The position numbers were made by a program, and so were the translations under genes. Shown piece after piece: positions 29,510-63,082 of a DNA stretch of 64,000 nt; the stretch's first letter is position 1; each line of letters starts with the position of its first letter. Below the pieces are notes generated by a model, which had not been told where the DNA came from, ran no database searches, and saw nothing but the letters and a program-made list of their open reading frames with translations. The DNA is taken from the IMG/VR virus record IMGVR_UViG_3300031758_000005. One strand, written 5' to 3'. This DNA is from a virus (taxonomy: Duplodnaviria; Heunggongvirae; Uroviricota; Caudoviricetes).

Positions 29510-29874
29510 GAGATAAAATTATAATATATAGCGTTCATGACAAAACGAGCAGAGAATTTGTTGCTGCATATGGTAACAGAAACGACGTTACTGTGTTGGA
29601 AGATGACGGATATAGTGTTCGAATAAAATATCCATACATTAGTGCTTTTCCAACTGTAATAATAAATACACCTTCATATACGGAGTCTTTTATTGTAGAT
29701 GAAGGTGGAGGCGGTGCATTTGTAAATTTAGATTCTATTGGAAATGAAACAATAGTGCCAGAAGATGTAGAATATATTAGATCTCCTAAAGATTGGAATG
29801 AAGTACAACAACGTATTGATTATTGGGAAAACAAAGTGCCCAATTGGAAACAAACTGATACTAGATATTTATGA
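29506..29874 (+). CDS. Hypothetical protein, copy A of a duplicated gene flanking the modification cassette
   Basis: N-terminus MRDKIIIYSVHDKTSREFVAAYGNRNDVTVLEDDG and C-terminus IDYWENKVPNWKQTDTRY are shared with 31140..31469. Confidence 0.5.
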   Translation: MRDKIIIYSVHDKTSREFVAAYGNRNDVTVLEDDGYSVRIKYPYISAFPTVIINTPSYTESFIVDEGGGGAFVNLDSIGNETIVPEDVEYIRSPKDWNEVQQRIDYWENKVPNWKQTDTRYL

Positions 29875-30545
29875 CAAGATATACCATTTTAGGCGAACGT
29901 AGATCAGGTACTAATTTTTTGCAACATTGTATAACTGACAACTTCAATTTACAATTAGATTGGTTAAAAGGATGGAAACATTTTTTTGGATGTAATGGTT
30001 ATGAAGATAAATTGAAGAATAACCAAGACGTAATATACTTGTGTATTGTTAGAAATCCAATTGATTATTTTGTATCATTTTATAATTCTAAATTGATGCA
30101 AAGTGAAGAACGTACAAAAGATATTGAAACGTTTTTATTATCAGAATTTTATTCAGTTTATAACTATAAAAACGGATTAATTGACGTATCAGACGACTAT
30201 AATTTTAAAAATAACAATAAGCGTTACAAAAACATATTTGAAATGCGATCCGTTAAATGTAAATATTTGTTAGATGATATGCCTAATTTAGTGAGTAAAT
30301 ATCATTTTATAAGATATGAAGATTTAAAACATAATACTAATACTGTATTGAATACAATTAGTGATAAATTTAATCTTATAAAAAAGAATGACAATTATTT
30401 AATAAATACAAATTATGTCGGTGTAAAAATTAATGGAGGTGTTATAACAGAAAATTATCAAGTTGAAGATAAAATAAAACAGATAATATATAACAATATA
30501 GATTTATCGACAGAACATAGAATGGGTTATTTGACCGATATATGA
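29871..30545 (+). CDS. Sulfotransferase-family protein (PAPS-dependent)
   Basis: The 5'-phosphosulfate-binding P-loop-like motif RRSGTNF resembles PKSGTTW. The 3'-phosphate-binding motif IVRNPIDYFVSFY resembles RNxKDxxVSxY of cytosolic sulfotransferases. Confidence 0.55.
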   Translation: MTRYTILGERRSGTNFLQHCITDNFNLQLDWLKGWKHFFGCNGYEDKLKNNQDVIYLCIVRNPIDYFVSFYNSKLMQSEERTKDIETFLLSEFYSVYNYKNGLIDVSDDYNFKNNNKRYKNIFEMRSVKCKYLLDDMPNLVSKYHFIRYEDLKHNTNTVLNTISDKFNLIKKNDNYLINTNYVGVKINGGVITENYQVEDKIKQIIYNNIDLSTEHRMGYLTDI

Positions 30546-31105
30546 AATTATACTCATATGATATAACTGAATTTAATTTTAAAGAGCAATTACAAACTGT
30601 TTTGAACGTGTCTAATTTAGATGATTTGGGGGAAAACAAAGATAAAGAGAAACTGTATTCTGAGTATATTTTGGGTAAACAGTTTTTAGATATGTATGTA
30701 CAGTTTATAAAAAAATATGTTAGAAATTTGTACGATGACGTTATAGCATATCAAACTAAACCAGTATGTAGATTGGTATATAAAAATAAATTAAATATGC
30801 ATAAACTTCATAAAGACAAGTGGTATAGAAGAAATACTATTTATAGTGATATGCAGATAGATAATATTTTTTTACCATTTACAAATGCTTTTGATACAAA
30901 CACAATTTGGACTGAATCAGTTGAAGACAGTCACGATTTTTTTCCGATAAATTGTGATTACGGACAATTTGTACACTGGGATGGTTGCAATTTACTTCAC
31001 GGTAATAAATTTAATAATACTAACAAAACAAGACTGAGTATAGATTTTAGAGTTTATAAATACAAAAATTTATTACACCCAGAGTATTCTTTATTGAATT
31101 TTTAG
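30542..31105 (+). CDS. 2OG-Fe(II) oxygenase-like protein (PhyH-like)
   Basis: HKD (HxD) around aa 89, distal His in LLHGN about 64 aa later, followed by TRLSIDFR (R-x-S 2OG-binding motif). Confidence 0.45.
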   Translation: MKLYSYDITEFNFKEQLQTVLNVSNLDDLGENKDKEKLYSEYILGKQFLDMYVQFIKKYVRNLYDDVIAYQTKPVCRLVYKNKLNMHKLHKDKWYRRNTIYSDMQIDNIFLPFTNAFDTNTIWTESVEDSHDFFPINCDYGQFVHWDGCNLLHGNKFNNTNKTRLSIDFRVYKYKNLLHPEYSLLNF

Positions 31106-34383: not shown

Positions 34384-34571
34384 TTACTTACATTCTCTGG
34401 TCCATTTGATGTATGAATACCCAAATACTTTACCTTGGTCAAATCCATAGGCATCTTGATGCGTTTCCAATCCCATAGGGCTGGTAGATCACTATCATCA
34501 ACAGCTTCCCATTCAATTTCCAATACAATTTTAGCAGATTTAGTTTTATTATTCATAACTTTCACGGTCAA
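34368..34571 (-). CDS. Hypothetical protein (67 aa)
   Basis: ORF. Confidence 0.4.
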   Translation of the reverse strand: MTVKVMNNKTKSAKIVLEIEWEAVDDSDLPALWDWKRIKMPMDLTKVKYLGIHTSNGPENVSNWMGN

Positions 34572-35646
34572 TGTTTGTCACATACGGAAATCTGGGCAGT
34601 TCATCACCAGGTGTAAGATTAAAATATTTCACCGTAGCACTCTTTCCAATAAGTTTATTTTTATTCTTCAAGAGTTCTTTTAGATATTCCCGAGTGCCTT
34701 TGATATTACTATGGAACTCAATTCCCTTATGATTCTTGAATACCATATATCCAGCCATACCACTCTTGTTGCCTATTCCTTCAACAATATCAAGAATTTT
34801 GAATTCACTATCTTGAAATTCTTTACGCTTGAGTAGGTATTTACTGCGCTTGTTTTCATATGGCCCATCGGTACGAACCATCTGACCTTCGTAACCTTCG
34901 TCAATGTACTTTTCATACAACTCATTCAAATGTGTAATCGTGTCCACAAGGTGAGTCGGAACACGACGAACCACATTGTTATTAACAAGATAAGTAGTAA
35001 TGTCAGCATTACGATCACTAAAAGTCTTCTGTACAATCCAGTCATATACCCAATATTGAATATTCTTTGCACTCTCAGTCAAATCTTCTGGTGTAGGTTT
35101 GGTCTTCTTTACCAAACTACAAATAGCATTAAAATCATTGGCAAACTTATCCGCATACAACTCACCATCAAGAATTGCATTTGGGAATTTAACAAAGAAA
35201 TCCTTCAATGCTACCAATACGTGAGGAGCTGAAACAATAGGTTTACCATTACGACTCCACATACCATCTTTCTTTACAACACAACGAATGCCATCCAACT
35301 TGGGTTGACTATAAACAGGATACTTCAAATCATCCTTATAATCGTCATAGTTCTTTGCCAACATTGGCTCAGTAAAACTAACTCCATCAATATCCGTGAT
35401 TTTTTCAAAGTAACCACTTTCTTTCTTTTTCTTCCAAGTGGCTTTGGCTTCTTTTACAGCTTGATCTTCATTGGAAGTAGCATTCTTTTTGCCGGTATTT
35501 TTACCAACACAAAGAGTCCATTCTGTAATTTGAATAGCCCCATCAAGCTGACCATAATGGGTACGATACTTGTTGCCATCAACTTCGATGGTCCAAGTTT
35601 GAATAGCACCCGTATTTGTACGGGCGAATAACATAGGTAGTTTCAT
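34549..35646 (-). CDS. ATP-dependent DNA ligase
   Basis: Motif I KLDGIRC (lysine adenylation site with the Arg typical of DNA ligases), motif III LDGELY, motif IV EGQMVR, motif V KYLLKRK. Confidence 0.8.
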   Translation of the reverse strand: MKLPMLFARTNTGAIQTWTIEVDGNKYRTHYGQLDGAIQITEWTLCVGKNTGKKNATSNEDQAVKEAKATWKKKKESGYFEKITDIDGVSFTEPMLAKNYDDYKDDLKYPVYSQPKLDGIRCVVKKDGMWSRNGKPIVSAPHVLVALKDFFVKFPNAILDGELYADKFANDFNAICSLVKKTKPTPEDLTESAKNIQYWVYDWIVQKTFSDRNADITTYLVNNNVVRRVPTHLVDTITHLNELYEKYIDEGYEGQMVRTDGPYENKRSKYLLKRKEFQDSEFKILDIVEGIGNKSGMAGYMVFKNHKGIEFHSNIKGTREYLKELLKNKNKLIGKSATVKYFNLTPGDELPRFPYVTNIDRESYE

Positions 35647-35718: not shown

Positions 35719-36900
35719 TTAAGCAGAAACCGTGTTGATTTTTGTTTTATACTTATAAACTGCGGTTACGTTTTCGTCTGTCATTACCTTTGACTTGACC
35801 AAACCATTGGAAAGCAATTCATATCGCTTTTGACACTTTGGTGTTTCTCGTCCACGAAGCAATGCTGCATATGTCATTTTTTTGTCACCAACCTTATGAT
35901 CAGCTTCTGGATTCTTCTTTAGAAGAGCGTTGATTTCCACAAACTTATACATAAACGTCTTTACATCCTTGATCTGATTGCGATGACGGTGATAAAACAC
36001 GAACAAATCAAATACAGTTTGCTTACTTAGCTTCATACCGTCCTTGAATACATCTTCATTTGGAGCGACCCACGTATTGAAGAAGTTGTCTACATCATTT
36101 TTAAAAAGAGATGACTTGCTGTTTAGCTCAGATCCATCTTCGTATTCACTGCGAAGAATGCCATCACTAATATTCTTCTTGAATCCAAAACTATGAAAGA
36201 ATGCCATACCAGCAAATTGCGAGTCAATCTTACGACGGTTATAATCTTGTTCTGAAAAGATCGAAAGAATCCAACTACGTGTAGTGAAATCCCGATAATA
36301 TCTTTCGCCAAATTCACGACAAATCTTTGAAATTGGACTAATAATAGCATTACGCTTTTCAGCCGCGTTCAATTCACATCCACTATTTACAGCGATGAAA
36401 ATATCACTCAATTGTGAACGAGTTGCATTGGTATATACTTGAACTGTGATGGTACGAGTTAGAATGAAATCTTTAACTGATTCACTCAGATCCGCCCATC
36501 GTTGGTCACGCTTGATGGTAAACTTATTGTCCAGTTCATCTGAATATGTTCCAGCACGCAATTCAAGTTGATTTGTAAACAACAAACGCAACGTAGTAAA
36601 ACGGTTGTTACTATCCAAATTGAGATAGTTAGCTCCCTTGGAAAGCCAACCAGAGTAATAGTTGATATCTTCTGCCAACATTGCACTCTTTCTACATTCA
36701 GGAACGTCAGCAAAAATAAACTTGCTTGGAGCAATTCCCTTAAGCAAATTGTGGAGATAACTGCGTGACTTTGTTGCATCCCAACGAGCGGGACTCTGAA
36801 AACTATCGTCGATAAACACACTATCGAGAAACTTCTTTGCATTAGAAAGTTCCCAGTTTTCGGTTGTGGACTTAACCATCTTTTGATTGTTATTAATCAT
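35719..36900 (-). CDS. DUF262 / ParB-like nuclease-superfamily protein with a degenerate catalytic motif
   Basis: N-terminal SFQSPARWD...LHNLLKGIAPSKFIFA matches the DUF262 IPxFQR..W...LxxSLxxGxP pattern. LDSNNRFTTLRLL aligns with the DGQQRLTTL motif, here as DSNNR. Confidence 0.5.
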   Translation of the reverse strand: MINNNQKMVKSTTENWELSNAKKFLDSVFIDDSFQSPARWDATKSRSYLHNLLKGIAPSKFIFADVPECRKSAMLAEDINYYSGWLSKGANYLNLDSNNRFTTLRLLFTNQLELRAGTYSDELDNKFTIKRDQRWADLSESVKDFILTRTITVQVYTNATRSQLSDIFIAVNSGCELNAAEKRNAIISPISKICREFGERYYRDFTTRSWILSIFSEQDYNRRKIDSQFAGMAFFHSFGFKKNISDGILRSEYEDGSELNSKSSLFKNDVDNFFNTWVAPNEDVFKDGMKLSKQTVFDLFVFYHRHRNQIKDVKTFMYKFVEINALLKKNPEADHKVGDKKMTYAALLRGRETPKCQKRYELLSNGLVKSKVMTDENVTAVYKYKTKINTVSA

Positions 36901-38052: not shown

Positions 38053-38760
38053 ATGGAAAACCTTTATGTTGAAAAAATACACAATTCGATTGCCAAAGAA
38101 TTGATTGTTAAACATCATTATACACACAAGTGGACCATAGCCGAGTTGTGTATCGGAATTTACGACAAAAGCAAACGTAGTGTATTTTTTGACGTTCCTA
38201 CGCTGGTTGGCGCAGTTGTATTTGGACCCACTGCTGGCGCAAATGTGGCTAGAAGTGTGTCTCCACTATTAAATCATTCCAATTTATGGGAATTGAAACG
38301 ATTGTGGGTAGCAGATGAATTGGGTAAAAATACTGAAAGTTGGGTTATTGGTCAATGTTTGAAATATATCAAACAACATCACAGTGAAATAAAGTGTTTG
38401 ATCAGTTATGCTGATCCTGATGCTGGACACATTGGTACCATATATCAAGCTACCAATTGGCTGTATCAAGATATTGAAAGACGCAAAGGCACTAGTGGTT
38501 ATATTGTTAGTTTTGACGGTGGTATTAAATGGCAACACTCACGTACATTATTCAACAAATATGGAACATTCAACTATAATAAATTGGTGGAAGTGTTACC
38601 CAGACCATTTAAGATCAAAGAATTATCAGTTAAAGAACGATATATTTATCCTTTGGGAAGCAAAGTGGAAAAGAAAAATCTGATTAAAAGTTTGAATTAT
38701 CCCATTATAGAATATCCCAAACTCAAATCAGATAAAGAAACTGTAGTGGAATTTAATTAA
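38053..38760 (+). CDS. Hypothetical protein, possibly an acyltransferase-fold enzyme
   Basis: Lone + strand gene within the − block, with its own promoter-like element. The acyltransferase assignment is an impression from motif spacing only. Confidence 0.35.
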   Translation: MENLYVEKIHNSIAKELIVKHHYTHKWTIAELCIGIYDKSKRSVFFDVPTLVGAVVFGPTAGANVARSVSPLLNHSNLWELKRLWVADELGKNTESWVIGQCLKYIKQHHSEIKCLISYADPDAGHIGTIYQATNWLYQDIERRKGTSGYIVSFDGGIKWQHSRTLFNKYGTFNYNKLVEVLPRPFKIKELSVKERYIYPLGSKVEKKNLIKSLNYPIIEYPKLKSDKETVVEFN

Positions 38761-41011: not shown

Positions 41012-42064
41012 TTATTCCTTACTTCCAAGTAGGTAAGTATTGCTAATAGCCTTGAAACTAAACTCCCGTTCAAGACCACGAACAACTACACCTTCACGGT
41101 CAACACCCATATTCAATACACTCTTACCTTCAGCATACTTCAACATATTATCAACCAAGTTTTCATTGGGTAATACATATCCATACTTTTCAAGTACAGG
41201 TACCATTGGCACTTCCAACCTAAACAACAACCACTCCAGTTCATCAAAGAACATACGACGACCCTTATCAATGTCATAACCAGTAAAGAAAAACAACTTG
41301 TGGTCGCTCAATCCATACAAATTACCATTGATATTTGAACCAATCAATTCTCCCTGAAGCGCAATGTTCTTGCCATACTTAGTCAACTTATCCTTCAACT
41401 CAAGCATATTAGCCATACGCCATAGACTATTGTCATTGGTTTCAGTCAACTCCCAATTACGTCCACAAACACCAAATACACCATTATTGAAGTAACAAGT
41501 GAAACTAGTACCATCCAACTTCTCAGTGATATACACTCGTTCTCCAACAGGCACAAAACCAATGTCACTTTCAAAGTTCTGAATACGAGTTTCATCCGTC
41601 TTTGGAATAAAACTAGGAAATGTACCCTTGATCTTTCCAGCCAATTGAGCAGGAATAGGAGGTTCATACTTGACAATATCAAGAGCCTCTGTCAAATCAT
41701 CACCTTCCTTTGGATCAATTATACCATCTGGAATTGGAGTCAATAGACCTTGACTCAATTGTCCACGCAACTTGATGGTCTTAAGACGAAATCCTTCAGC
41801 GGTTCCCATACGCTTGAAACTACTCTTACGCAAGAATTCAAACTGAGGTCGGATAGGTAAGAAGCTGTCAATTTCATAATAAACAGCCAAGTCACCTACC
41901 TTATATTCTCCAACTTTCACGACTACATTCCACCCCTTTACCTTAGCCACAACAATGGCATCAGCACCAACAATAGGTTGAATGTCAACAATCTTTACAA
42001 CACTAGCTAACTTACGTTCCATATTTATCCTTTCTAAATTAATAAGAGTCAAACTCAACCTCAA
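41012..42064 (-). CDS. RNA ligase-like nucleotidyltransferase
   Basis: KxDG adenylation motif ITEKLDGTSF without the DNA-ligase Arg. N-terminal OB-like region. Terminator hairpin immediately downstream. Confidence 0.55.
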   Translation of the reverse strand: MRLSLTLINLERINMERKLASVVKIVDIQPIVGADAIVVAKVKGWNVVVKVGEYKVGDLAVYYEIDSFLPIRPQFEFLRKSSFKRMGTAEGFRLKTIKLRGQLSQGLLTPIPDGIIDPKEGDDLTEALDIVKYEPPIPAQLAGKIKGTFPSFIPKTDETRIQNFESDIGFVPVGERVYITEKLDGTSFTCYFNNGVFGVCGRNWELTETNDNSLWRMANMLELKDKLTKYGKNIALQGELIGSNINGNLYGLSDHKLFFFTGYDIDKGRRMFFDELEWLLFRLEVPMVPVLEKYGYVLPNENLVDNMLKYAEGKSVLNMGVDREGVVVRGLEREFSFKAISNTYLLGSKE

Positions 42065-43648: not shown

Positions 43649-44293
43649 TTAATGATGTTTATCTTGCTTAACGTGATTCTTGTTCATCATAATCTTCTGA
43701 ATCTCTGGAAAAGACAACGGCTTGCCGTGACCATCCCAACCCACATCCAGAATTTTATTGTCTGGGTTATCAAGTTGAGTAGTTGGATTGGTATAGTGGC
43801 TGTGACCACTCAACTGCCAAGCACCCTTTTGCATCTGATTAAAAATCTGATGTGGGTAATGATGAATAACAATCATATGACCATTTACAATTAGTTCCTT
43901 GTAATAACCCAGATAAGTTATCTTACCAACTGCATATGGATACACTTCAATATCTTTACCATATTCAGTTGCAATAGCTTCTTCATACAATCTACGAATA
44001 CAACTGTTATGATTACCCCAAATATAAGCAATATTTTGACAATTGATTCGTGCTAGAATTTCATTGAACTCTGGAGGGGTAATGTTTAGACAAAAATCAC
44101 CCAGATGAATTAGTGTATCTTCTGGACGCACTACTTCATTAATCTTTGCAATCAAAGCATCATCGTGTTCATAACGATCTTTATAACCTCTAGCTTCAAA
44201 TATGAAACTTTGGTTATGCCGGAAATGAGTATCACTGGTAAAGAATACCTTGTGACTATCATTATGTGTTAGTTTTAGAGGTCTTTCAAACAT
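43649..44293 (-). CDS. Calcineurin-like metallophosphoesterase (putative polynucleotide 3'-phosphatase partner of PNK)
   Basis: Motifs DTHF ... GDFCLN ... GNHN. Overlaps the kinase gene by 8 nt. Confidence 0.7.
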   Translation of the reverse strand: MFERPLKLTHNDSHKVFFTSDTHFRHNQSFIFEARGYKDRYEHDDALIAKINEVVRPEDTLIHLGDFCLNITPPEFNEILARINCQNIAYIWGNHNSCIRRLYEEAIATEYGKDIEVYPYAVGKITYLGYYKELIVNGHMIVIHHYPHQIFNQMQKGAWQLSGHSHYTNPTTQLDNPDNKILDVGWDGHGKPLSFPEIQKIMMNKNHVKQDKHH

Positions 44294-44744
44294 AAATCAT
44301 TACATCAATTCCTTCATTAAAGGATGGATCTTCATATTTTGATAGCATCCTATCAATAATATTTGTAGGCACAACTCTACCACCTTGTTCTCCTCGTTTC
44401 TTGTTTCTTTCAATTAATCCTTGACGATCCATCTTGAAAACAATAGCAACTACTTTTGCACCATATTTCTTTGCAGTCTTAATATAGTCACTACGTTCCT
44501 TACGGTTTACACTGGTTGCGTCAACCAATACATTTTTACCATCTTTTAGAAATTCGTCAACCTTTCTTTTGATGTGACCGAAAACAAGTGGGGTAACAGT
44601 TTGATCTTCTTCACTTTTACCATATACAGCACGTAGTGAATCACTACTTAGATATTCAATATCTTTGTCTTTAATAAAGTTTTTTGCATATGTGGATTTA
44701 CCACTTCCAGGCAATCCAACCGCAATATAAAGTGTATTATTCAT
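44286..44744 (-). CDS. Polynucleotide 5'-kinase (P-loop kinase domain, T4 PseT kinase-like)
   Basis: N-terminal LYIAVGLPGSGKSTYA aligns with the T4 Pnk N-terminus (...GCPGSGKSTWA). 152 aa, kinase domain only. Confidence 0.65.
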   Translation of the reverse strand: MNNTLYIAVGLPGSGKSTYAKNFIKDKDIEYLSSDSLRAVYGKSEEDQTVTPLVFGHIKRKVDEFLKDGKNVLVDATSVNRKERSDYIKTAKKYGAKVVAIVFKMDRQGLIERNKKRGEQGGRVVPTNIIDRMLSKYEDPSFNEGIDVMIYV

Positions 44745-47139: not shown

Positions 47140-48231
47140 TTAGTTCTTTAAGACTTGGAACATCAACTTCTTATATTCTTCCTTACCTAATGGACGATTA
47201 TCCAAGAGTTTAAATACAAAAGCAGCTCTGTTTGTTTCACCATAAGATGAAATAACCAGTTGTGCTTGTTCTTTTCTGGTAGGCAATGAACGAAGTCTGT
47301 TATTCACAAAACTATTCATACCATCCACAATCTTGTTTACTTCCTTCTTACCATCCGCAATACGGCTAATAGTACCTTTAATTTGTTCTGCTAACTCGAA
47401 ATCAAAGGTGGTAAAGATATAGTTATAAAAAGTGTTGTAGTCAGGCATACCCTGTTCCAACCACACATCCATAATTTTTTCCAGTGAACTAAGTTCAGAC
47501 TTTAGATGATGTAACAGGAGATATTTAGATGCTTTAATCTTATGAATAGTCTGATCATTCTTACTATATAAGCATACGCCTTCTTTATCTTGCCACTTAT
47601 CTACAATCTGTAACATATCAGTTATATCAGTAAAAGTATAGATTTCCGGACGAAGTAAATCATACTTCTTAGCCATAGCATCCAACATATCTTGTTGTGC
47701 AAGTGAATAGTTGATATGATTAATAAAACCAATCAACTTCCACATAGGTTCATCGCCATACGATAACACAATTTTATTGATTGGAGACAGCCATTCCCAA
47801 ATGATAGAATAACCCCAAGTATCATTGTTATCCTGTAACTTACTTAGAATAGTTGACTTGAACAATTCTAACTCAAAACCATTAGCCATAGTAGAAGCAT
47901 CAACAGTTCCACGGGTTCGTAGAATATATTGACCCTTATACTTGCTAACAATCAAAGTGCTACCGTCCAACTTTTCAACAACAGTGCAATGCTTCAATGA
48001 AGCAGGAACAGGAAAGTGTTCAGGATTCTCCCCATAGTTAGTAAACTTCGGAAATGATGCACTAATAACTTCACCCTCATAATTCACAACCACACTACGC
48101 ATGTGCTTGTTGTCTTGCGTCCACTTAGTGCCAATATTTTGGGGTTGAATCAAATGGACAATTTCACCGAAAGCGTGGAAATGGTGCACCATAAATTGAG
48201 TGCGGTCAACCTTATCTATGTCAATTTTCAT
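47140..48231 (-). CDS. RNA ligase-like nucleotidyltransferase (second copy, distinct family)
   Basis: VVEKLDGSTLIVSKY KxDG motif. Size of 363 aa is similar to T4 Rnl1. Leaderless-type promoter upstream. Confidence 0.55.
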   Translation of the reverse strand: MKIDIDKVDRTQFMVHHFHAFGEIVHLIQPQNIGTKWTQDNKHMRSVVVNYEGEVISASFPKFTNYGENPEHFPVPASLKHCTVVEKLDGSTLIVSKYKGQYILRTRGTVDASTMANGFELELFKSTILSKLQDNNDTWGYSIIWEWLSPINKIVLSYGDEPMWKLIGFINHINYSLAQQDMLDAMAKKYDLLRPEIYTFTDITDMLQIVDKWQDKEGVCLYSKNDQTIHKIKASKYLLLHHLKSELSSLEKIMDVWLEQGMPDYNTFYNYIFTTFDFELAEQIKGTISRIADGKKEVNKIVDGMNSFVNNRLRSLPTRKEQAQLVISSYGETNRAAFVFKLLDNRPLGKEEYKKLMFQVLKN

Positions 48232-55432: not shown

Positions 55433-55532
55433 ATAGTAATAATACTATCGTTAGTGATAAAACACAAGATTTATTTTTCACACCGTGTCACATTTTATTT
55501 CATTTTTTAAAAATGATTAATATTTATTATAT

Positions 55533-56213
55533 ATGAAAATAATATCTGGAATTTATAAACTCACATCACCGTCCGGAAAATGTTATATTGGTCAAAGTAA
55601 AAATATATATCAAAGATTTCGTGATCACAAAAGAGCTAATAAACATAAACATTGCAAGTTATATGTTGCAATTAAAAAATACGGATACGAAAATTTTAAA
55701 AAAGAAATAATAGAAGAATGTAACAAAGAAATTTTAGATAAAAAAGAACAATATTGGATTAAATATCACAACTCCGTTGATAACGGATATAATTGTGATT
55801 ATGGTGGACAAATTCATAAAGAATTTGGAAAAGAACATAGAGAAAAATTACGTGCAGCATTTTTAGGAAAGTATAATGGCAACCAAAATATTGAATTTTA
55901 CATAGATAACATTTTGTATAAATCAATTGGTGATGCTAGTAAAAAATTAAATATACCCCCTAAAACGATATATAATAGGTTAAATTCTAAAAACATAGAA
56001 TTTGATAATTATAAATATAAAGATGTAAATTTAATACCAACCAGAAGTATTAGAAAATACGCATCACAACCTTTTATTATTGATGGTATAAAATATACCA
56101 CTATAAAAGAAGCGTCTGAAGTATTAAATATACCATCATCAATATTGAGAAGAAAATTAAAATCTGGTAAATTGTCAAATTCATCATATATTACACCGCA
56201 ACATCCGCTTTAA
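55533..56213 (+). CDS. Free-standing GIY-YIG homing endonuclease with C-terminal HTH (NUMOD-like) DNA-binding repeats
   Basis: GIYKLTSPSGKCYIGQS...R...H...YWIKYHNSVDNGYNCDYGG GIY-YIG core. Two C-terminal repeats (YKSIGDASKKLNIPPKTIYNRL and YTTIKEASEVLNIPSSILRRKL). Convergent 23-nt overlap with thyA. Confidence 0.8.
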   Translation: MKIISGIYKLTSPSGKCYIGQSKNIYQRFRDHKRANKHKHCKLYVAIKKYGYENFKKEIIEECNKEILDKKEQYWIKYHNSVDNGYNCDYGGQIHKEFGKEHREKLRAAFLGKYNGNQNIEFYIDNILYKSIGDASKKLNIPPKTIYNRLNSKNIEFDNYKYKDVNLIPTRSIRKYASQPFIIDGIKYTTIKEASEVLNIPSSILRRKLKSGKLSNSSYITPQHPL

Positions 56214-57342
56214 TTGTTGGGTGTGATTGATAATCTATTAACTTAATATCATCATATTTAAAATCAAATAATGATTTTATTTCAGGATTCAACCACAATT
56301 TTGGTAACTTCATTGGTTCTCTTGACATTTGTAGTTTAATTTGATCCAAATGGTTCGTATACAAATGTGCGTCACCGATTGAGTATGTCAATGTACCAGT
56401 AGCCATATTGCTTACATGCGACATCATTGCTACCATCAGTGCATATGATGCTATATTAAATGGCTTCCCAAGAAAAATATCATTTGATCTGATTGTCATC
56501 ATTAAATTCAAACGACGGGTTGGAATATTAGCGTCATTTAATACTTTTTCATTCATTTCAGGCACAGATACCCATCCTTTATTTCCTCCTGATTTTCTGT
56601 ATAAATCAAATCGTTCTTCCAGTGTCAATTCTTCTGTATTAAAAATTAGAAAACAATGACAGGGCGGTAAGGCGCAATGATCTACCCAATGTGGATGCCA
56701 TGCTGATACGATCATACGACGATCATCTGGATTGGTTTTTAGCTTGTCAATTACTTTTTGTAGTTGATCTATTCTACCAAAAAACCACGATTCGGCATAA
56801 TCACCTTTTGTTCCACTCACAGTACCTTTGGGACAAGTGCTTGCATCATTATCATTCACGGTGGTATAAAACGGAAAATTTCTCCACATTCCGCCATACG
56901 TTCCTTCACCTAATTCACCCCATAAAAGTGCAAAATTTGGGTCATCTTTAATTTCTTGAATGAAACGCTCTTGAGTCCAAGAAGACCGCCACCGATTCCC
57001 ACCCAAATCGCCATACGGATTTGCTTCATAGGTTTCTTCAGGATGAGATTTGCAAAAATCAATATAGCGTTTATATGCCCACTCATTCCAGATTCTAACG
57101 TTATTGTCAACCAGATACTTGATATTTGTATCACCACTAATGAACCACAGCAATTCGTGAACAATAGCTGGCCAATGAACTTTCTTTGTGGTTAATAGAG
57201 GAAATGCATTTAGATCCACATTGTATTTGGCTTGAGCACCAAAAATGCCAATGGTATCTACCCCAGTTCTGTTCTTTTTAAGTTTTCCGTTTGTCAAAAT
57301 ATCATTGACAATTCTGAAATATTCTGTGTCTACTTTGTTCAT
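56191..57342 (-). CDS. thyA: Thymidylate synthase (ThyA) carrying unusual insertions
   Basis: DRTG...FPLLTTKKV...IVHELLWFISGDTNIKYL, NDPDDRRMIVSAWHP, ALPPCH (catalytic Cys), FLGKPFNIASYAL (Asn conserved, pointing to dUMP specificity), GDAHLYTNH, REP..LP, HP.IKA.VAV. 383 aa versus ~265-320 aa typical. Confidence 0.9.
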   Translation of the reverse strand: MNKVDTEYFRIVNDILTNGKLKKNRTGVDTIGIFGAQAKYNVDLNAFPLLTTKKVHWPAIVHELLWFISGDTNIKYLVDNNVRIWNEWAYKRYIDFCKSHPEETYEANPYGDLGGNRWRSSWTQERFIQEIKDDPNFALLWGELGEGTYGGMWRNFPFYTTVNDNDASTCPKGTVSGTKGDYAESWFFGRIDQLQKVIDKLKTNPDDRRMIVSAWHPHWVDHCALPPCHCFLIFNTEELTLEERFDLYRKSGGNKGWVSVPEMNEKVLNDANIPTRRLNLMMTIRSNDIFLGKPFNIASYALMVAMMSHVSNMATGTLTYSIGDAHLYTNHLDQIKLQMSREPMKLPKLWLNPEIKSLFDFKYDDIKLIDYQSHPTIKADVAV

Positions 57343-57343
57343 A

Positions 57344-57835
57344 TTATTTAGTATACATTATAACTTTGTGTAGGTCAAATTCTTTTACAACTTCTTTATG
57401 TGTAAACGTATGTTCAAACTCAGGCATAAATGTATCACCATCATAATTACCATTTATATGCGTAACATAGAACTCCTTAATGTATGGTAACAACTTAATA
57501 TAAGTTTTAGCACCACCAGCAACAATCAAATAGTCTTTTCTAAATTGACTATATGATTCAAAATCTGTCATTGTAATCAGTTGACCAGTCATAGAGTTAT
57601 TGTTTACCAGATATTGATTTGGATTTGCAGCCATTATTTTGTCTTCTTTGACTAGTACAAGACATTCTCTATTTTTTAGAAGTGGTAGTGTATCAAATGT
57701 ATTTTTACCTACCACAATAGTATTACCAACGGTAAATTCTTTAAAGTGCTTAAAATCCTCTTTTATAGATGGCCAGGGTAATCCACCATTTTTGCCTATA
57801 ACCCTATTTTGTGCCATTGCAAGTATTGCTTTCAT
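57344..57835 (-). CDS. Dihydrofolate reductase
   Basis: MKAILAMAQNRVIGKNGGLPW, VVGKNTF, LIVAGGAKTY, THINGNYDGDTFMP DHFR signature. Its stop abuts the thyA start. Confidence 0.85.
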   Translation of the reverse strand: MKAILAMAQNRVIGKNGGLPWPSIKEDFKHFKEFTVGNTIVVGKNTFDTLPLLKNRECLVLVKEDKIMAANPNQYLVNNNSMTGQLITMTDFESYSQFRKDYLIVAGGAKTYIKLLPYIKEFYVTHINGNYDGDTFMPEFEHTFTHKEVVKEFDLHKVIMYTK

Positions 57836-58269
57836 TGTATATAATTTAAAATTAGTTTGATTGATTGTTCAATAGAATTTTTATCGGTGTCAATATCAAG
57901 ATAGTTATTTAATGGCGGTTCATAATAATCCACCATCTTACCCTCCCTTAATCTGTTACTATGTAGATATACTTCTTTTACAATATGTGTAGAATCATTT
58001 TTTAATGAGTCTCTTAAATTTCTGAACGGAGATACTAACGACATTATTGTGTAATTATATAATTTGTTGCTAGTTTTTGCCATTTCTATAGCTAATCTCA
58101 CATTACTTTTTCTGCCACTAATACTATAGTCTTTATTGTTACTAATACTACGTAACGTATCCCCATCAATAGTTACAGCTGTACGATTTGTTTTTGTTAA
58201 AAGTGTTTCTAATGTTAACGCCAATGTGGTTTTACCACTATTTGGTTGACCTGTTAATATAATAATCAT
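57832..58269 (-). CDS. Adenylylsulfate (APS) kinase-like P-loop kinase
   Basis: P-loop ILTGQPNSGKTTLA. IDGDTLRS resembles LDGDNVR. GRKSNVRLAIEMAK resembles DRxENIRRxAEVAK. LVSPFRNLRD resembles ISPYRxDRD. C-terminal YYEPPLNNYLDIDTD resembles YExPxxPELxLDT. Confidence 0.6.
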   Translation of the reverse strand: MIIILTGQPNSGKTTLALTLETLLTKTNRTAVTIDGDTLRSISNNKDYSISGRKSNVRLAIEMAKTSNKLYNYTIMSLVSPFRNLRDSLKNDSTHIVKEVYLHSNRLREGKMVDYYEPPLNNYLDIDTDKNSIEQSIKLILNYIQ

Positions 58270-58913
58270 AACAATATTTTCTTTTCGTGTTTTACCACAA
58301 CTTCAGGATGTACCCAAACATCAATACCACATTCTTTTACCAAATGACAAAAGCTTACGTCTTCCATTGTAAACTCCGTAACATTGCCAAATTGTTTCCA
58401 AATTGGTCTAAACCATGGATATTTCAATTTTTCAAATACACCCCGTTTTATAAGTATAAAGCCAAATCCAGTGTAGTCTACTGTAAATGGATCTTTGAAT
58501 TGTTTTAATTTATCGAAAGTTAAAAATTCAAAACTACCATACTTCTTAAAATGATCTTCGTTCCAATCTTTTACAGTAGCATAGTGCGTACCATCTTGCA
58601 TTAGATATAAACCAGATGCAATATCTTTCTTTATATTGAATAGCTTAATGAAGTCATCCACTTTGAACATATTGTCACTATCAATCCAAAGTATATAATC
58701 ATATTCGATTCTACCTTGCCATGGCTTTTGATTTTCTCCAGCATTAGAATCACCACCCAAACACATATTACGTACATAATAGATGTTACACGATTCTCTA
58801 CGAGAAAGTATAGGAGTTATTTTGTTATGAATACACCAATTATAAAATGGTATAAAACTATCTAACCACTGACCAGAGAAATTATTGCCGGGTAAACAAA
58901 TTATTAATCTCAT
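58266..58913 (-). CDS. GT-A fold glycosyltransferase (DxD-type)
   Basis: ILWIDSDNMF DxD-like motif. Paralogous pattern with the next gene (SGLY...GFxLxKxxVF). Confidence 0.55.
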   Translation of the reverse strand: MRLIICLPGNNFSGQWLDSFIPFYNWCIHNKITPILSRRESCNIYYVRNMCLGGDSNAGENQKPWQGRIEYDYILWIDSDNMFKVDDFIKLFNIKKDIASGLYLMQDGTHYATVKDWNEDHFKKYGSFEFLTFDKLKQFKDPFTVDYTGFGFILIKRGVFEKLKYPWFRPIWKQFGNVTEFTMEDVSFCHLVKECGIDVWVHPEVVVKHEKKILL

Positions 58914-59659
58914 GATTTAAAAAACAAATTGTTTTGTACAAACAAGTTACCTTTATAACCTTTCCAACCATAGTGAGTCAAGTTACAAGTGGTATCTACA
59001 TATATCTTACCACCGATACTTCTATAAAGATTACAAAAGCCATAATCTTCACTTTCATATTTCTTTGTCTTTTCATTTATTTTACATGGAAAGAAATCAT
59101 AGAACTTATCCCCATATCCCATATACCCATCAATGTCATTCTTATATGCTATATTAGGCATTTCTCTAGAAATTTGATTGAAGACACGTTTCTTGAATAA
59201 CATGAATCCAGTAGCAGCATAATTTACTTCTTCAATGTTTTTCATTTCGGGATTGAGTTTAATTTCTGTAGCAAAGTCGGTACATAGTTCTTCGTAATTA
59301 TCACCGATCATTTCTGGTCCTTGTTTTGCTAACAACTTTACTTTAGACGAATTAATATACTTCTTGGGATATAAACCTGAAATAACATCTTTATCAGCCT
59401 TTAACAATGAAAAGAAACTCTCGGGTTCAAATGATATATCACTATCAATGAACATCATATAATCACAATCCGGTTGATTTAGAAAATTAGCAGCTGCAGC
59501 ATTTCTAGCTCTAGCAATCAAACTTTCAAAGTATATACAATCCAAACTAAATGATATACCCCTACGTTGTCCCTCAAATATCAACTTCATCACACTAAAC
59601 ATAAAGTGTGATAGTACAGTATGATTATAACAAATCACAGGCAAATAAACTTTGGTCAT
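58910..59659 (-). CDS. GT-A fold glycosyltransferase (family-2-like)
   Basis: YMMFIDSDISFEPESF DxD motif. ATGFMLFKKRVF C-terminal motif. Confidence 0.55.
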   Translation of the reverse strand: MTKVYLPVICYNHTVLSHFMFSVMKLIFEGQRRGISFSLDCIYFESLIARARNAAAANFLNQPDCDYMMFIDSDISFEPESFFSLLKADKDVISGLYPKKYINSSKVKLLAKQGPEMIGDNYEELCTDFATEIKLNPEMKNIEEVNYAATGFMLFKKRVFNQISREMPNIAYKNDIDGYMGYGDKFYDFFPCKINEKTKKYESEDYGFCNLYRSIGGKIYVDTTCNLTHYGWKGYKGNLFVQNNLFFKS

Positions 59660-59892
59660 AGTATGATCTTTTCCTTCTCAAAATATTCAGTAACTTCATC
59701 ATTCCAAGGCTTGTTGATGTCATCTAACTTATTAGCAATAGAACGCATTATATGTGACGGCCAGCAACCATCATTACTTGGCCAGAAATAATAATAACCA
59801 TCAACATCCATAATAAGTTCACCAACTAAATGATTATTCGGAGTCAGTACGTGGAACTTCTGGTTGTTGATCTGTTTGTAAATTAGATTCAT
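59656..59892 (-). CDS. Hypothetical protein (78 aa)
   Basis: ORF. Confidence 0.4.
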   Translation of the reverse strand: MNLIYKQINNQKFHVLTPNNHLVGELIMDVDGYYYFWPSNDGCWPSHIMRSIANKLDDINKPWNDEVTEYFEKEKIIL

Positions 59893-60334
59893 TTTTTTCT
59901 AAAACAATATTTGTAGTACCCTCGTAATTTACCCCACCAATAACATTAATAATAAATTTGTTGGTGATGGTTCCCTCCAAGTTACTAGTAACAATATAAC
60001 TCTCTTGTACGCTTCCGTCAAGAAAAAACACAATTTTGGTAGAACTTGATTCAAGTATCTTCAAGTCATTTGTAACAGCATCCATCAAATAAACATCATC
60101 AAATGAACTATACATATTATAGTTTTCATCAAACGTAAGTTCAAACTCACGTTGTTGAAATGCTGCTTGATGTTTGAGATTAATCAATAGTGTCTTTAAG
60201 TTTTCTCTAGCTTCAAAATATCTATTGTTACCAACTAGACTATCATAGTTGATAACAATTGCACCAATAATACCAAGCAATATGGTTATGGCTAATACTA
60301 ACTCTATTAGTGTAAATGCTTTATTGTTTTTCAC
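59834..60334 (-). CDS. Type IV pilin / pseudopilin-like protein with a prepilin N-terminal cleavage-methylation motif
   Basis: MKNNKAFTLIELVLAITILLGIIGAIV: class-III signal (K-A|FTLIEL with Glu at +5) followed by a hydrophobic helix. Confidence 0.5.
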   Translation of the reverse strand: MKNNKAFTLIELVLAITILLGIIGAIVINYDSLVGNNRYFEARENLKTLLINLKHQAAFQQREFELTFDENYNMYSSFDDVYLMDAVTNDLKILESSSTKIVFFLDGSVQESYIVTSNLEGTITNKFIINVIGGVNYEGTTNIVLEKNESNLQTDQQPEVPRTDSE

Positions 60335-60578
60335 GAATTAGTTTTAATTTTTGTTGACGGGTCAATTGTTTGATTTGATACTCCCTCTTCATTGCTTCAC
60401 TTTTACTATTAAAACATTCGGTATATACTAATCTAACTGGTAATCGTGTCTTAGTATATTTAGCACCACACCCTCTAGAATGATCACTAACTCGTTTTTC
60501 AACATTATTAGAGTAACCACAATAGAGGGTGTTGTCCCCACAAATAACTATATAGCAACAATGATTCTTAACTATCAC
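60321..60578 (-). CDS. Small GIY-YIG (URI-domain, COG2827-type) nuclease
   Basis: CYIVICGDNTLYCGYSNNVEKRVSDHSRGCGAKYTKTRLPVRLVYTECFNSKSEAMKREYQIKQL matches the GIY-YIG, R, H, E, N arrangement of UPF0213-type proteins. Confidence 0.8.
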   Translation of the reverse strand: MIVKNHCCYIVICGDNTLYCGYSNNVEKRVSDHSRGCGAKYTKTRLPVRLVYTECFNSKSEAMKREYQIKQLTRQQKLKLIREKQ

Positions 60579-60957
60579 ATCGTATATCTAATTTCGCTGT
60601 AGGAGTATAAGTGCCCAATCCAATATTGCCATTTGAAGCAATGGTCAATCGTGATTCTACACCATAATATCCAAATGAATTTGTTTCTGCTTTAACTACA
60701 GCTGGTTTATTTAGTGGCGAACAAATATTGATTGAAATATTCTCACTATTATTAACTAGGATTTCAAAGTTATCACTATCTCTGAATTGCATTACACAAG
60801 TAGCACCATCACTACGAGTAAATACAAGTTTTTCACAAGTTAATACTTTTTCAGACGAAGAAGCTGGTTCTGATGCTTTAACAGTTGAACCAGCAACAAC
60901 ACCTGCGATTCCTCCAAATAGGGTGGAGAAAAACCCTTTACGATTTAGTTTTTCCAT
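60568..60957 (-). CDS. Secreted hypothetical protein
   Basis: N-terminal signal-like MEKLNRKGFFSTLFGGIAGVVAGSTVKA. Confidence 0.45.
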   Translation of the reverse strand: MEKLNRKGFFSTLFGGIAGVVAGSTVKASEPASSSEKVLTCEKLVFTRSDGATCVMQFRDSDNFEILVNNSENISINICSPLNKPAVVKAETNSFGYYGVESRLTIASNGNIGLGTYTPTAKLDIRCDS

Positions 60958-60997
60958 ATAATATACTATATCATAGTATGGATACTAAATCAATATT

Positions 60998-61315
60998 TTA
61001 TTTCTTAAATAGTTCTTTGATACTAACTCCGTGTTTGTTGTCTTTGAAAGACCAAATGGATGGTTTCTTTTTTAGATATAGATCTTGATTAGCATACAAC
61101 TCTTTTACACAATTATCTGTTTTAACGATGACCACTTTGTGTTTACCATCTGCGTCTAGTTGGTTTTTGAATTGAACTAAATGACCGTCTGACCAAGCCA
61201 TTTGTTGTTTACATACAATACAAGTTCTACCAGACTTTTTCTTGGCAAAGATACTTGCATTTGCATTTGTTGCGGTTAATACTAATAGTCCAACAATTAA
61301 TAATACTTTATTCAT
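60998..61315 (-). CDS. Secreted hypothetical protein
   Basis: Signal peptide MNKVLLIVGLLVLTATNANA. Confidence 0.45.
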   Translation of the reverse strand: MNKVLLIVGLLVLTATNANASIFAKKKSGRTCIVCKQQMAWSDGHLVQFKNQLDADGKHKVVIVKTDNCVKELYANQDLYLKKKPSIWSFKDNKHGVSIKELFKK

Positions 61316-61349
61316 AATAACTCAAAGATAACATATATCGAATACAATG

Positions 61350-62375
61350 TCAACGTATATAATAAAGAACACGTTGCAAAACATATTGATAGGTATCAAA
61401 CCATTTTTTATTACCCAACTGATATTTTGGTATCTTACTCAAGTCAATTGATTCACTATAAATTGCATATGAACTTAAATAAGCATCATTACAATTGGCG
61501 TGTTGTTCATAATGATTAGGCATTGGTATCATCAACAATGGTTTGTTTTGATATATAGCTTCAGCACTTGTTTCAAATCCACCACTACATACTACTGCCT
61601 TACATACCTTCATCTTTTCTTGAAATAGTTTACCATCAAGATTAAATAATTTTAAATTTGGTAGTTCATCATATTGTTTGGTTAATTTGGTAAAACAATG
61701 AATATTGATATCTGGATATTTTTTTGCTTGATTAATCAATTGCGGTAACATATCTTCATTCATTAGATATACCAACACAAAGTCTTCTTGTTTGTGTGAT
61801 ACACTATAACTTTCACTTCTTAATATTGGAGGACTTGCAATCATAACATCATCATTAAATTCATAATAACTTAATGCTACGATTTTGGATCTGATACTAG
61901 TGATTTTGTTTATGATATTTAAAAATAACTTTTGTACAGGATATCCATTGATTCGTGGATATATAATAGAATCCATTGCGTATTGATGTCCAAAGCTTAC
62001 ATACTTTATGTTTTTAAAGAATAATGCGGTTAGACCTACCAGTGGTTCATAATAGTTGAATATAGCATCTGGTTTTTCTTTTTGGATGATGCTACAGATT
62101 TTAATGAATGATACAATTAAGCGTGGTAATTCAAATGTGTTGTTCAATATGGTTTTCCAGATAACAACTCTACCTACACTATCAAATACAAAATCAAATC
62201 CATCATAGTCTACTACGTTAAATTCGTCTGTAAAATATTTAGATAACCCCCGTTTCTTTTTAGCTGCAAAAGCAGTTGTTACCTCAATGCCTTGCGATTG
62301 TAGATATTGTTTGGTTGCTATAGCTTGTGTAATGTGTCCATTACCTTCAGTTTGAACTCCGAATAATATCTTCAT
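61350..62375 (-). CDS. GT-B fold glycosyltransferase (MurG / family-28-like)
   Basis: N-terminal GVQTEGNGH resembles GGTGGH. C-terminal CSGGFETSAEAIYQNKPLLMIPMPNHYEQHANCN resembles the MurG C-terminal donor-binding region. Confidence 0.6.
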   Translation of the reverse strand: MKILFGVQTEGNGHITQAIATKQYLQSQGIEVTTAFAAKKKRGLSKYFTDEFNVVDYDGFDFVFDSVGRVVIWKTILNNTFELPRLIVSFIKICSIIQKEKPDAIFNYYEPLVGLTALFFKNIKYVSFGHQYAMDSIIYPRINGYPVQKLFLNIINKITSIRSKIVALSYYEFNDDVMIASPPILRSESYSVSHKQEDFVLVYLMNEDMLPQLINQAKKYPDINIHCFTKLTKQYDELPNLKLFNLDGKLFQEKMKVCKAVVCSGGFETSAEAIYQNKPLLMIPMPNHYEQHANCNDAYLSSYAIYSESIDLSKIPKYQLGNKKWFDTYQYVLQRVLYYIR

Positions 62376-63082
62376 AATTTGATTAGTTTTATGTCACCTT
62401 CTAATGTCTCAATTATATACGATGTATTTTCTCCAACAATAAAACTACCACAATTGTAATAGTTTATACCATCAATAATGGTACATTCTGGTTTGTGTAT
62501 ATGACCGCATAAAATACTATCGTGTCCACTATTTTTACAATAGTGTACAACGGTAGCTTCATAATTGCCTATGTACTTAACTGCTTCTTTTGCTTTTTGT
62601 TTGAGAAAGTTACTGAAGCTAAATTTGAATATTCTAAATAGTTTATTTACCGACAAACTATAATCGTATATTACTGAACCAATATGTTGTATCCACTTAT
62701 TTTTGGTTACTAATCCATCAAATTGATCTCCGTGAATAATTAATATTCTTTCGTTTTTTAATGTGGTATGAGTGATTTCTCTTACAACTTGTATATTATC
62801 GCCAAAGTATATGTCATTGAATGGTTCGATAAAGTCATCGTGGTTACCCCAAATATAATATACTTTGGTTCCTTTACGACTCATACGCAATATTTTTTGC
62901 AATATTGTGTTATAATTGCTATGCCACTTAAACTTTCTACTCAATAACCAACCATCAATAAAATCACCTACAATATACAAATATTCACATTCAACTTCAC
63001 TTAATAGTTTCAATAATTTTTCGTGGTTACAAAAATCACTACCTATATGACAATCACTTATAAATAATGTGCGTACTTTCAT
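62372..63082 (-). CDS. LpxH-like calcineurin-family phosphoesterase (UDP-sugar pyrophosphatase type)
   Basis: LFISDCHIGSD ... LYIVGDFIDGW ... GNHD resembles the LpxH motifs LFISDLHLG ... LYLLGDLFDxW. Confidence 0.6.
   Translation of the reverse strand: MKVRTLFISDCHIGSDFCNHEKLLKLLSEVECEYLYIVGDFIDGWLLSRKFKWHSNYNTILQKILRMSRKGTKVYYIWGNHDDFIEPFNDIYFGDNIQVVREITHTTLKNERILIIHGDQFDGLVTKNKWIQHIGSVIYDYSLSVNKLFRIFKFSFSNFLKQKAKEAVKYIGNYEATVVHYCKNSGHDSILCGHIHKPECTIIDGINYYNCGSFIVGENTSYIIETLEGDIKLIKL

Follow-up and report, generated by a model that had tools for sequence, protein, structure and literature searches.

In rhizobia, NodP, NodQ and NodH provide a dedicated sulfate activation and sulfotransfer for the sulfation of the Nod-factor glycan; NodQ holds a canonical adenosine 5'-phosphosulfate (APS) kinase domain and NodPQ is a sulfurylase of the CysDN type. 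As for viruses, many virome papers count cysC among the auxiliary metabolic genes, and it is usually interpreted in terms of assimilatory sulfate reduction and cysteine synthesis. The present analysis deals with a relative of the canonical APS kinase (CysC; EC 2.7.1.25) encoded on the minus strand (57832..58269) of a 64,000-nucleotide stretch of Caudoviricetes DNA, IMG/VR record IMGVR_UViG_3300031758_000005, which is referred to here as the window. The protein (KIN) has 145 amino acids (aa) compared with 175-200 aa in the canonical enzymes, its lid has 12 residues compared with 32, and there is no adjacent ATP sulfurylase. With a probability of roughly 0.55, judged from sequence comparisons, a predicted structure and gene neighborhoods, it would be an active, lid-shortened APS kinase that turns host-derived APS into 3'-phosphoadenosine 5'-phosphosulfate (PAPS) for a phage sulfotransferase.

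Viral homologs of this enzyme have been named before. An APS kinase is annotated in Ralstonia phage phiRSL1 (B2ZYE1, UniProt), short-lid proteins are already called 'adenylylsulfate kinase' in IMG, and A0A6J5MI95, a cysC product of 148 aa from an uncultured Caudovirales phage, shares the short architecture of the window kinase (TM 0.88/0.86). The names of these viral cysC genes are automatic annotations. An earlier interpretation made from the window's letters (the sequence-only reading) had considered a viral route to the sulfate donor unusual; since viral 'cysC' is commonly annotated in IMG, UniProt and virome papers, a viral APS kinase homolog is not new in itself. In the literature searched, no description was found of a lid-shortened subfamily, of its coupling to a nucleotidyltransferase similar to nicotinamide mononucleotide (NMN) adenylyltransferases (NMNAT), or of its association with sulfotransferases in the vicinity of fibre genes, and the search on phage sulfotransferases or PAPS pathways gave nothing relevant.

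The membership of the window kinase in the APS kinase family is indicated by profiles, by sequence searches of solved structures and by the predicted fold. The Pfam profile PF01583 (APS_kinase) matches with 59.8 bits (E 4e-16; gathering cut-off 21.1), the match spanning profile positions 4-107 of 152 only. The runner-up Pfam family, KTI12 (E 1.3e-9), is seven orders of magnitude weaker, and the rest are generic P-loop families. In a phmmer search of the PDB, the 22 best matches are APS kinases or APS kinase domains, with 8a8h of Methanothermococcus at the top (E 7.5e-13). The AlphaFold2 (AF2) model, with 58 homologs in the alignment, has a mean predicted local distance difference test (pLDDT) score of 95.1 and a predicted TM score (pTM) of 0.90, and APS kinases make up all of its 50 best Foldseek matches in the PDB (TMq 0.75-0.88, E down to 2.5e-9). 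The sequence-only reading had asked whether another P-loop family, such as gluconate, shikimate or thymidylate kinase, scores best; this is not the case, and APS kinases lead throughout.

The comparison with canonical APS kinases (Mycobacterium tuberculosis CysC, Penicillium chrysogenum, the human PAPSS1 kinase domain and M. thermolithotrophicus 8a8h) shows the same fold (TMq up to 0.88), the same P-loop and LDGD-type motif, both phosphosulfate arginines, the first stacking aromatic, the I/V-S-P strand end and the C-terminal YExP...D. In detail, the P-loop is found at G7-T14 (G7-QPNSGKT-T15) and the DGD motif at D35-D37 (I34-DGD37), and they are followed by R40, Y48, R53, N56 and V79-S80. The roles of the ligand contacts, and those of the P-loop and DGD motif toward Mg2+ and the ribose hydroxyl, are known from M. 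tuberculosis CysC (PMC4373884), onto which the APS contacts outside the lid map as D480=D37, R483=R40, F492=Y48, R497=R53 and I523/S524=V79/S80. The core contacts to APS are kept, that is, the two phosphosulfate arginines (R40 and R53), the first stacking aromatic (Y48, Phe being replaced by Tyr) and V79-S80, and most of the mapped residues vary little or not at all within the short-lid family. The P-loop and the LDGD-type motif are invariant in the subfamily alignment A1, which covers both clades, and are kept in 121-130 of 133 family representatives; the other invariant positions of A1 include R40, R53, N56, S80-P81, R86, R106, R108 and E109. S80 is variable across the representatives (76/133), and the contact at this position is made by the main chain. 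The motif strings quoted in the sequence-only reading (IDGDTLRS, GRKSNVRLAIEMAK, LVSPFRNLRD and YYEPP...LDIDTD) are all present in the translation.

Its claim that the protein agrees with APS kinase at every signature position holds for the P-loop, the DGD motif and the core APS contacts and fails at the lid. This region, located after the fourth strand and before the YExP motif, comprises 12 residues in the window kinase (S104-Y115, SNRLREGKMVDY) against 32 in the canonical enzyme in a MAFFT alignment, and because of this shortening the kinase aligns to solved APS kinases in two HMMER pieces separated by a gap. The first part of the lid is retained, with R106 aligned to the Arg of RDxKG. The segment ARxGEIxxFTGIxxP, which carries the second adenine-stacking Phe, is deleted, and the contacts of F576 and H575 (M. 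tuberculosis CysC numbering) have no counterpart. There is no lysine in register with the lid Lys of the canonical enzymes; R108 and K111 are close by. Across the representatives, R106 is found in 92 of 133 and an Arg or Lys at position 108 in 104 of 133. Position 111 is Tyr or Phe in 86 of the 133, possibly as a stand-in stacking residue, and Lys in the window's clade.

These features of the lid weigh against an active APS kinase. In M. tuberculosis CysC, the lid of 30 residues provides R559, which stacks on the adenine of ATP, K562, which contacts the gamma-phosphate and the 2'-OH of APS, and F576, the second of the aromatics between which the adenine of APS is sandwiched; activity is lost when a conservative mutation loosens this lid, whose proper closure is essential (PMC4373884). 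The profile scores point the same way. Of the two profiles on which the sequence-only reading wished to be judged, PF01583 is passed, as described above, whereas the NCBIfam equivalog TIGR00455 gives 68.3 bits, under its cut-off of 138.7, and with every other NCBIfam model for adenylyl-sulfate kinase the window protein is likewise far under the cut-off. With the contacts outside the lid kept and the lid itself cut, the active-site core is that of an APS kinase and the full lid, a defining feature, is absent. APS would most likely be the substrate in spite of the missing segment.

The truncated lid and the sub-threshold equivalog score also suit a non-catalytic APS/PAPS-binding or regulatory protein, similar to the APS kinase-like allosteric domain of fungal ATP sulfurylase, and the PDB matches include such domains of ATP sulfurylases (1m8p, 1i2d and 3cr8). 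However, the Lys and Thr of the P-loop and the Asp of DGD are near-invariant, and R106 and R/K108 predominate. This conservation fits selection for catalysis and makes a non-catalytic binder highly improbable.

The short form is a real and large subfamily of about 145-165 aa and not a truncation artefact, to judge from a search with the window kinase that covered 1.84 billion representative proteins exhaustively. The search gave 1525 matches at E <= 1e-3, and nearly all of the best 150 of these are 140-165 aa long and aligned end to end with the query.

The neighborhoods of the subfamily on viral contigs were analysed in 80 loci, which form 30 clusters at 85% kinase identity (alignment-based scan). 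Two kinds of genes recur beside the kinase. The first is a nucleotidyltransferase of 115-140 aa, located 0-350 bp after the kinase on the same strand in 59 of the 80 loci. The second is a PF13469/PF00685 sulfotransferase directly upstream of the kinase, often at less than 50 bp, in 17 loci (8 of the 30 clusters); the kinases that adjoin it are 40-50% identical to the window kinase and have the same short lid. Both neighbors are also found in cellular genomes. For instance, in a Crocinitomicaceae metagenome-assembled genome (MAG; L064), the kinase-nucleotidyltransferase pair is accompanied by two PF00685/PF13469 genes, and in a gammaproteobacterial MAG (L066) by a PF19798 sulfotransferase (168 bits) inside a polysaccharide locus. 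A Marinimicrobia single-cell genome (L067) has an open reading frame (ORF) homologous to the PF19798 gene of L066 in the same position, and two cellular genome bins (L065 and L071) have L018-type sulfotransferases beside the pair. Since unrelated sulfotransferase families have only the donor PAPS in common, this recurrent neighborhood is the strongest indirect evidence for a role in sulfation. The link to sulfation made in the sequence-only reading thus gains independent support, as short-lid homologs adjoin sulfotransferases of three Pfam families on phage and cellular contigs.

In the sister clade, the sulfotransferase-kinase cassette follows long fibre-like genes, which in L018 are rich in glycine- and collagen-like repeats. 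An unusual combination is found in an Oligoflexia MAG (L073, 5008-7477), where a pyruvate kinase barrel is fused to a canonical APS kinase with a full lid (PF01583, 144 bits) and a sulfotransferase is the next gene.

The partner nucleotidyltransferase belongs to PF01467 (cytidylyltransferase-like). Its best named relatives are NMN adenylyltransferases of the NadM type, and it shows a faint match to an ATP sulfurylase profile. Its presence after the kinase is near-universal outside the window's clade (L018, L046-L050, L064-L072 and 59 loci within L079-L158), and it is often followed by a DUF2061 gene and a small HAD-like ORF. In L096 (6428-7150), an HNH-type endonuclease and the partner gene are read as a single ORF; a candidate nucleotidyltransferase in L083, a locus of the clade in which dihydrofolate reductase (DHFR) follows the kinase, was rejected as an HNH endonuclease which had been drawn into the hidden Markov model (HMM) via this fused ORF. 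Fusions of the short kinase itself were found with the nucleotidyltransferase in four representatives (P0291, P0316, P0347 and P0295), with a HAD phosphatase in two (P0279 and P0302) and with an FkbM methyltransferase in one. The fusions with the cytidylyltransferase-like domain count for an APS kinase, because they mirror the fusions of kinase and ATP sulfurylase.

The nucleotidyltransferase may act as a minimal ATP sulfurylase, or it may belong to a different activation pathway. A pair of similar logic is known in coenzyme A synthesis, where CoaD is the phosphopantetheine adenylyltransferase (PPAT) and CoaE the dephospho-CoA kinase, the two being fused as CoA synthase in eukaryotes. Similarly to the pair of the sister loci, a PF01467-type adenylyltransferase and a P-loop kinase acting on the 3'-OH of an adenylate carry out two successive steps. 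On the contrary, the short-lid kinase has no specific similarity to CoaE, the partner is nearer to NMNAT than to PPAT, and the context consists of sulfotransferases and glycosyltransferases, not of CoA genes. The comparison with NodP/NodQ/NodH is of another kind, since it concerns a pathway-specific supply of PAPS encoded beside a carbohydrate sulfotransferase; the L018-type sulfotransferase even matches weakly the model of the nodulation sulfotransferase NoeE. In contrast to NodPQ, the phage kinase is lid-shortened, and the candidate sulfurylase of the sister loci is an NMNAT-like nucleotidyltransferase of 134 aa, which is absent in the window.

A wider proposal can be made from these neighborhoods, and only tentatively. 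The short-lid kinase and the NMNAT-like nucleotidyltransferase of 115-140 aa, frequently accompanied by DUF2061 and a small HAD phosphatase, might form an undescribed minimal module of sulfate activation, in which the nucleotidyltransferase would be a third type of ATP sulfurylase, neither Sat nor CysDN. Phages and some bacteria might use it to sulfate glycans or collagen-like fibres, and the window phage might have a kinase-only version, take APS from its host and sulfate the products of its own tail-fibre module through the cassette at 29871-31105 and two neighboring glycosyltransferases of the GT-A type.

The same neighborhoods can be interpreted without sulfate. The kinase and the nucleotidyltransferase would then activate another group by phosphorylation followed by nucleotidyl transfer to an NDP-X product (heptose, another sugar or an alcohol phosphate), the window gene would encode a kinase for a sugar or small molecule that cooperates with the GT-A pair, and the sulfotransferases would decorate the glycan with PAPS of the host. 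The frequency of a PF01467-type partner in the viral loci is consistent with this, as are the HAD phosphatase fusions and the HAD-like ORF of some cassettes. The sulfotransferase cassettes also hold HAD phosphatases and glycosyltransferases of the GT9 type (heptosyltransferase-like), a GmhA-like gene with a SIS motif occurs in L113 and L120, and of 150 neighboring ORFs, 2 match the SIS family and 2 the GHMP-kinase family; the set resembles the ADP-heptose pathway, and these neighbors keep a sugar-activation reading alive. Nevertheless, the nearest relatives in sequence and fold are APS kinases only, and the whole family retains the adenine-stacking aromatic and both of the arginines that bind the phosphosulfate. 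Moreover, L113 and L120 already possess SIS and GHMP-kinase-like genes (L120 also a separate nucleotidyltransferase), so that the short-lid kinase is not needed there as a heptose kinase, and the partner is closest to NMNAT-type adenylyltransferases, not to sugar-1-phosphate transferases. Activation of another group is therefore considered unlikely.

An APS kinase feeding a phage sulfotransferase has also to be weighed against the context of the window and of its clade, which supplies further points on the opposite side. In 19 of the 30 viral clusters, a sulfotransferase is not among the 25 of 101 Pfam families listed for 150 neighboring ORFs, a listing in which singleton sulfotransferase matches could go unseen; a motif regular expression found no further sulfotransferases and was probably too strict. 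The constant neighbor in the window's clade is not a sulfotransferase but DHFR, which follows the kinase in all 12 viral loci, abutting or overlapping in 11 and 830 bp away in one. Neither the partner nucleotidyltransferase nor an ATP sulfurylase was found in any of these 12 loci. Likewise, the window shows no motif of Sat, CysD or CysN and no match to the HMM of the partner (the Pfam scan covered part of the ORFs), so that the search for an ATP sulfurylase gene elsewhere, recommended by the sequence-only reading and made with motif and HMM scans within the window, found none. A related contig with a 65% identical kinase has 140,758 bp, and about half of the phage genome probably lies outside the window. 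Finally, the sulfotransferase cassette of the window is 27 kb from the kinase and variable in its occurrence: the window, L020, L053 and L054 have it, and L051, L052 and L055 lack it.

The kinase is the third of five tightly packed genes on the minus strand (56191-59659), which in the order of transcription are GTA2 (58910..59659, 249 aa), GTA1 (58266..58913, 215 aa), KIN, DHFR (57344..57835; PF00186, 104.6 bits) and the thymidylate synthase gene thyA (56191..57342, 383 aa; PF00303, 304.9 bits), the last gene of the run. Stop and start codons overlap by 4 bp at each junction from GTA2 to DHFR, and ThyA starts just past the DHFR stop. The three reading frames which the sequence-only reading gave for the kinase and the glycosyltransferases are all present on the minus strand with the overlaps that it described, whereas its placement of the kinase just downstream of thyA and DHFR is reversed: in the direction of transcription the kinase is upstream of both. 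As a consensus scan for promoter-like and terminator-like sites in the run showed no excess over shuffled expectation, it is from the overlaps of the reading frames that we reasonably infer co-transcription.

This arrangement suggests a kinase of nucleotide metabolism which would serve the DHFR-thymidylate synthase module, either by phosphorylating dTMP or another dNMP or by converting NAD to NADP for DHFR. Besides the 12 loci of the clade, DHFR likewise follows the kinase in L001, L005 and L016-L019, mostly overlapping; L001 has genes of NAD salvage nearby (NAMPT, Nudix and phosphoribosyl pyrophosphate synthetase), and the chemistry of APS kinase, directed to a ribose OH of an adenylate, is formally similar to the phosphorylation of NAD. 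The match to thymidylate kinase is, however, weak and generic to the fold (phrog_761, E 0.0015, against 4e-16 for APS_kinase). The DGD motif suggests a hydroxyl and not a phosphate as the acceptor, on the basis of the role of D480 (PMC4373884) and of general knowledge. In L091 the order is KIN...GTA...ThyX-like...GTA, with no DHFR within 7 kb and no ThyA detected, so the kinase can persist without a DHFR detected nearby, next to GT-A genes and a ThyX-like gene. The rest of the subfamily has no link to DHFR, and a role in nucleotide metabolism appears improbable.

The ThyA of the run is itself peculiar, since residues 7-383 cover the 266-position PF00303 profile end to end, which indicates a large insertion. 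In L008, L009 and L012, the same slot is filled by an ordinary short ThyA (27-34% identical). A run which contains an inserted ThyA and glycosyltransferases, in a window that also encodes a Mom-family protein, could belong to a pathway of DNA modification, and the kinase could act on polynucleotides, either in end healing similar to T4 Pnk or, together with the ThyA homolog and the glycosyltransferases, on 5-hydroxymethyl-dU in a hypermodification of DNA. The HAD fusions show faint similarity to the PNKP phosphatase, and there is a weak match to the polynucleotide kinase family phrog_505. But a separate polynucleotide kinase (PNK)-like kinase (44286-44744; AAA_33, 96 bits) lies near an RNA ligase and has only the P-loop in common with the window kinase, and no polynucleotide kinase is found among the 50 best structural matches. 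In addition, only thymidylate synthase oxidises folate to dihydrofolate, and the presence of DHFR implies a true thymidylate synthase cycle; the replacement of the inserted ThyA by the ordinary form in related loci argues in the same direction. We give a polynucleotide or DNA-modification kinase very little credence.

The Mom-family protein (38053-38760, plus strand; PF25680, 150.6 bits) suggests a function in DNA adenine modification. A probable RNA repair set is located within 41012-42064, 44286-44744, 47140-48231 and 34549-35646, all on the minus strand; it includes the PNK-like P-loop kinase (AAA_33/KTI12), an RNA ligase that carries a PHA02142 OB domain, and an ORF with a homolog in L001 that is annotated as a T4 Rnl1-like RNA ligase. 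An ATP-dependent DNA ligase is also present.

The two genes preceding the kinase are related to each other, GTA2 being a distant paralogue of GTA1 (25% identity over 165 aa, E 2e-9), and both belong to phrog_1574, which is labelled 'unknown function'. GTA1 matches this family with 197 bits and has a DSD motif at positions 78-80; its AF2 model (pLDDT 93.2) has a GT-A fold, and its Foldseek matches, with modest TM scores, are STIV A197 (E 1.5e-9), COLGALT1, LH3, Mnn9, Mimivirus R699 and ppGalNAc-T. GTA2 matches phrog_1574 with 140.8 bits and also has a DSD motif. The Pfam profile GT2 (Glycos_transf_2; cut-off 23.3) stays under its threshold with both (16.3 bits for GTA1 and 14.3 for GTA2), as does Anp1 with GTA2, and sequence searches of the PDB with the two proteins returned nothing meaningful. 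Two glycosyltransferases of the DxD type, as the sequence-only reading had it, are thus borne out by the motif in both and by the modelled fold of GTA1.

The pair is found in 7 of the 11 informative viral loci of the clade and is missing from the other four (L081 and L088-L090) and also from L001 and L005; the GT-A genes are thus accessory in the window's clade. On the other hand, the order is rearranged to KIN-DHFR-GTA-ThyA in L016, L017 and L019, and the recurrence of phrog_1574-type genes near the kinase (L016, L091 and L116) hints at a real link. The association of kinase and glycosyltransferases put forward in the sequence-only reading therefore stands insofar as it recurs in rearranged contexts and falls short where the pair is missing. 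The contexts of GT-A homologs in an Elusimicrobia MAG and one phage contig were uninformative.

The presumed consumer of PAPS is a sulfotransferase of 224 aa on the plus strand (29871..30545), which passes the cut-offs of PF00685 (27.1 bits; cut-off 22) and PF03567 (22.9 bits). The sequence-only reading had placed a sulfotransferase 28 kb away, and the gene is indeed present at 27 kb from the kinase. Its translation holds GERRSGTN (8-15) and RNPIDYFVS (61-69), which we take to be the 5'-phosphosulfate-binding (5'-PSB) loop and the 3'-phosphate-binding (3'-PB) motif, respectively. A sequence search of the PDB with this protein gave nothing meaningful. The next gene (30542..31105, plus strand; 187 aa) encodes a probable 2-oxoglutarate (2OG)-Fe(II) oxygenase with a sub-threshold match (32 bits) to TIGR04324, the 'sporadic carbohydrate cluster 2OG-Fe(II) oxygenase'. 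In L053 (7611-8819), sulfotransferase and oxygenase are fused into one ORF of 402 aa. Together with a protein of 122 aa, the two genes form a mobile three-gene cassette (29506-31105, plus strand), inserted among five paralogous fibre-module proteins of about 400 aa.

Kinase and sulfotransferase occur together in both of the two contigs that are informative in this respect, the window and IMGVR 3300042908_000899, which encodes a kinase with 65% and a sulfotransferase with 74% identity to those of the window; most other contigs end before the position at which the gene would be expected. The single-protein pattern scans used for this co-occurrence are insensitive and missed the sulfotransferase of the latter contig.

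The sulfotransferase and the oxygenase close a long fibre module in which laminin-G and collagen-repeat proteins abound. At 65-22207 (plus strand), a fibre module of very large size encodes several proteins of 800-1240 aa with laminin-G domains and collagen triple-helix repeats, and the ORF at 17208-20831 has nine collagen-repeat stretches. The facts on the fibres, GTA1 and the oxygenase would fit a hydroxylation, glycosylation and sulfation of collagen-like phage fibres.

If the window protein is an active APS kinase, it would transfer the gamma-phosphate of ATP to the 3'-OH of APS and so make PAPS. APS would be supplied by the host, because the window and its clade lack the nucleotidyltransferase partner. 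PAPS would then be used by the sulfotransferase at 29871-30545, possibly on the product of the neighboring GT-A glycosyltransferases, and the target of sulfation would probably be a glycan or the collagen-like tail fibres.

Other genes surround the operon region. Probable GIY-YIG endonuclease genes flank it at 55533-56213 (plus strand) and 60321-60578 (minus strand), and their L001 homologs carry PF01541; the former runs on the strand opposite to thyA and overlaps its 3' end. A protein of 166 aa (59834-60334, minus strand), encoded immediately before the GT-A genes, has a prokaryotic N-terminal methylation motif (type IV pilin-like) and is 83-97% identical across related phage loci. Megablast of 55500-62500 against cultured phages gave no match; tblastn of the kinase gave two weak gut-phage fragments only, and tblastn of the ORF at 35719-36900 gave a single weak cyanophage match.

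If the short-lid enzyme makes PAPS, an APS kinase works without most of the lid that is held essential in the enzymes studied. In this case, a widespread group of aquatic phages would carry out a sulfation of its own, which appears to be linked to genes for fibres and glycans and not to cysteine synthesis, many viral 'cysC' annotations as auxiliary genes would need re-reading, and the partner nucleotidyltransferase of the sister loci would be a candidate for a new type of ATP sulfurylase. If the substrate is another one, a large set of automatic 'adenylylsulfate kinase' names in IMG and UniProt would be wrong.

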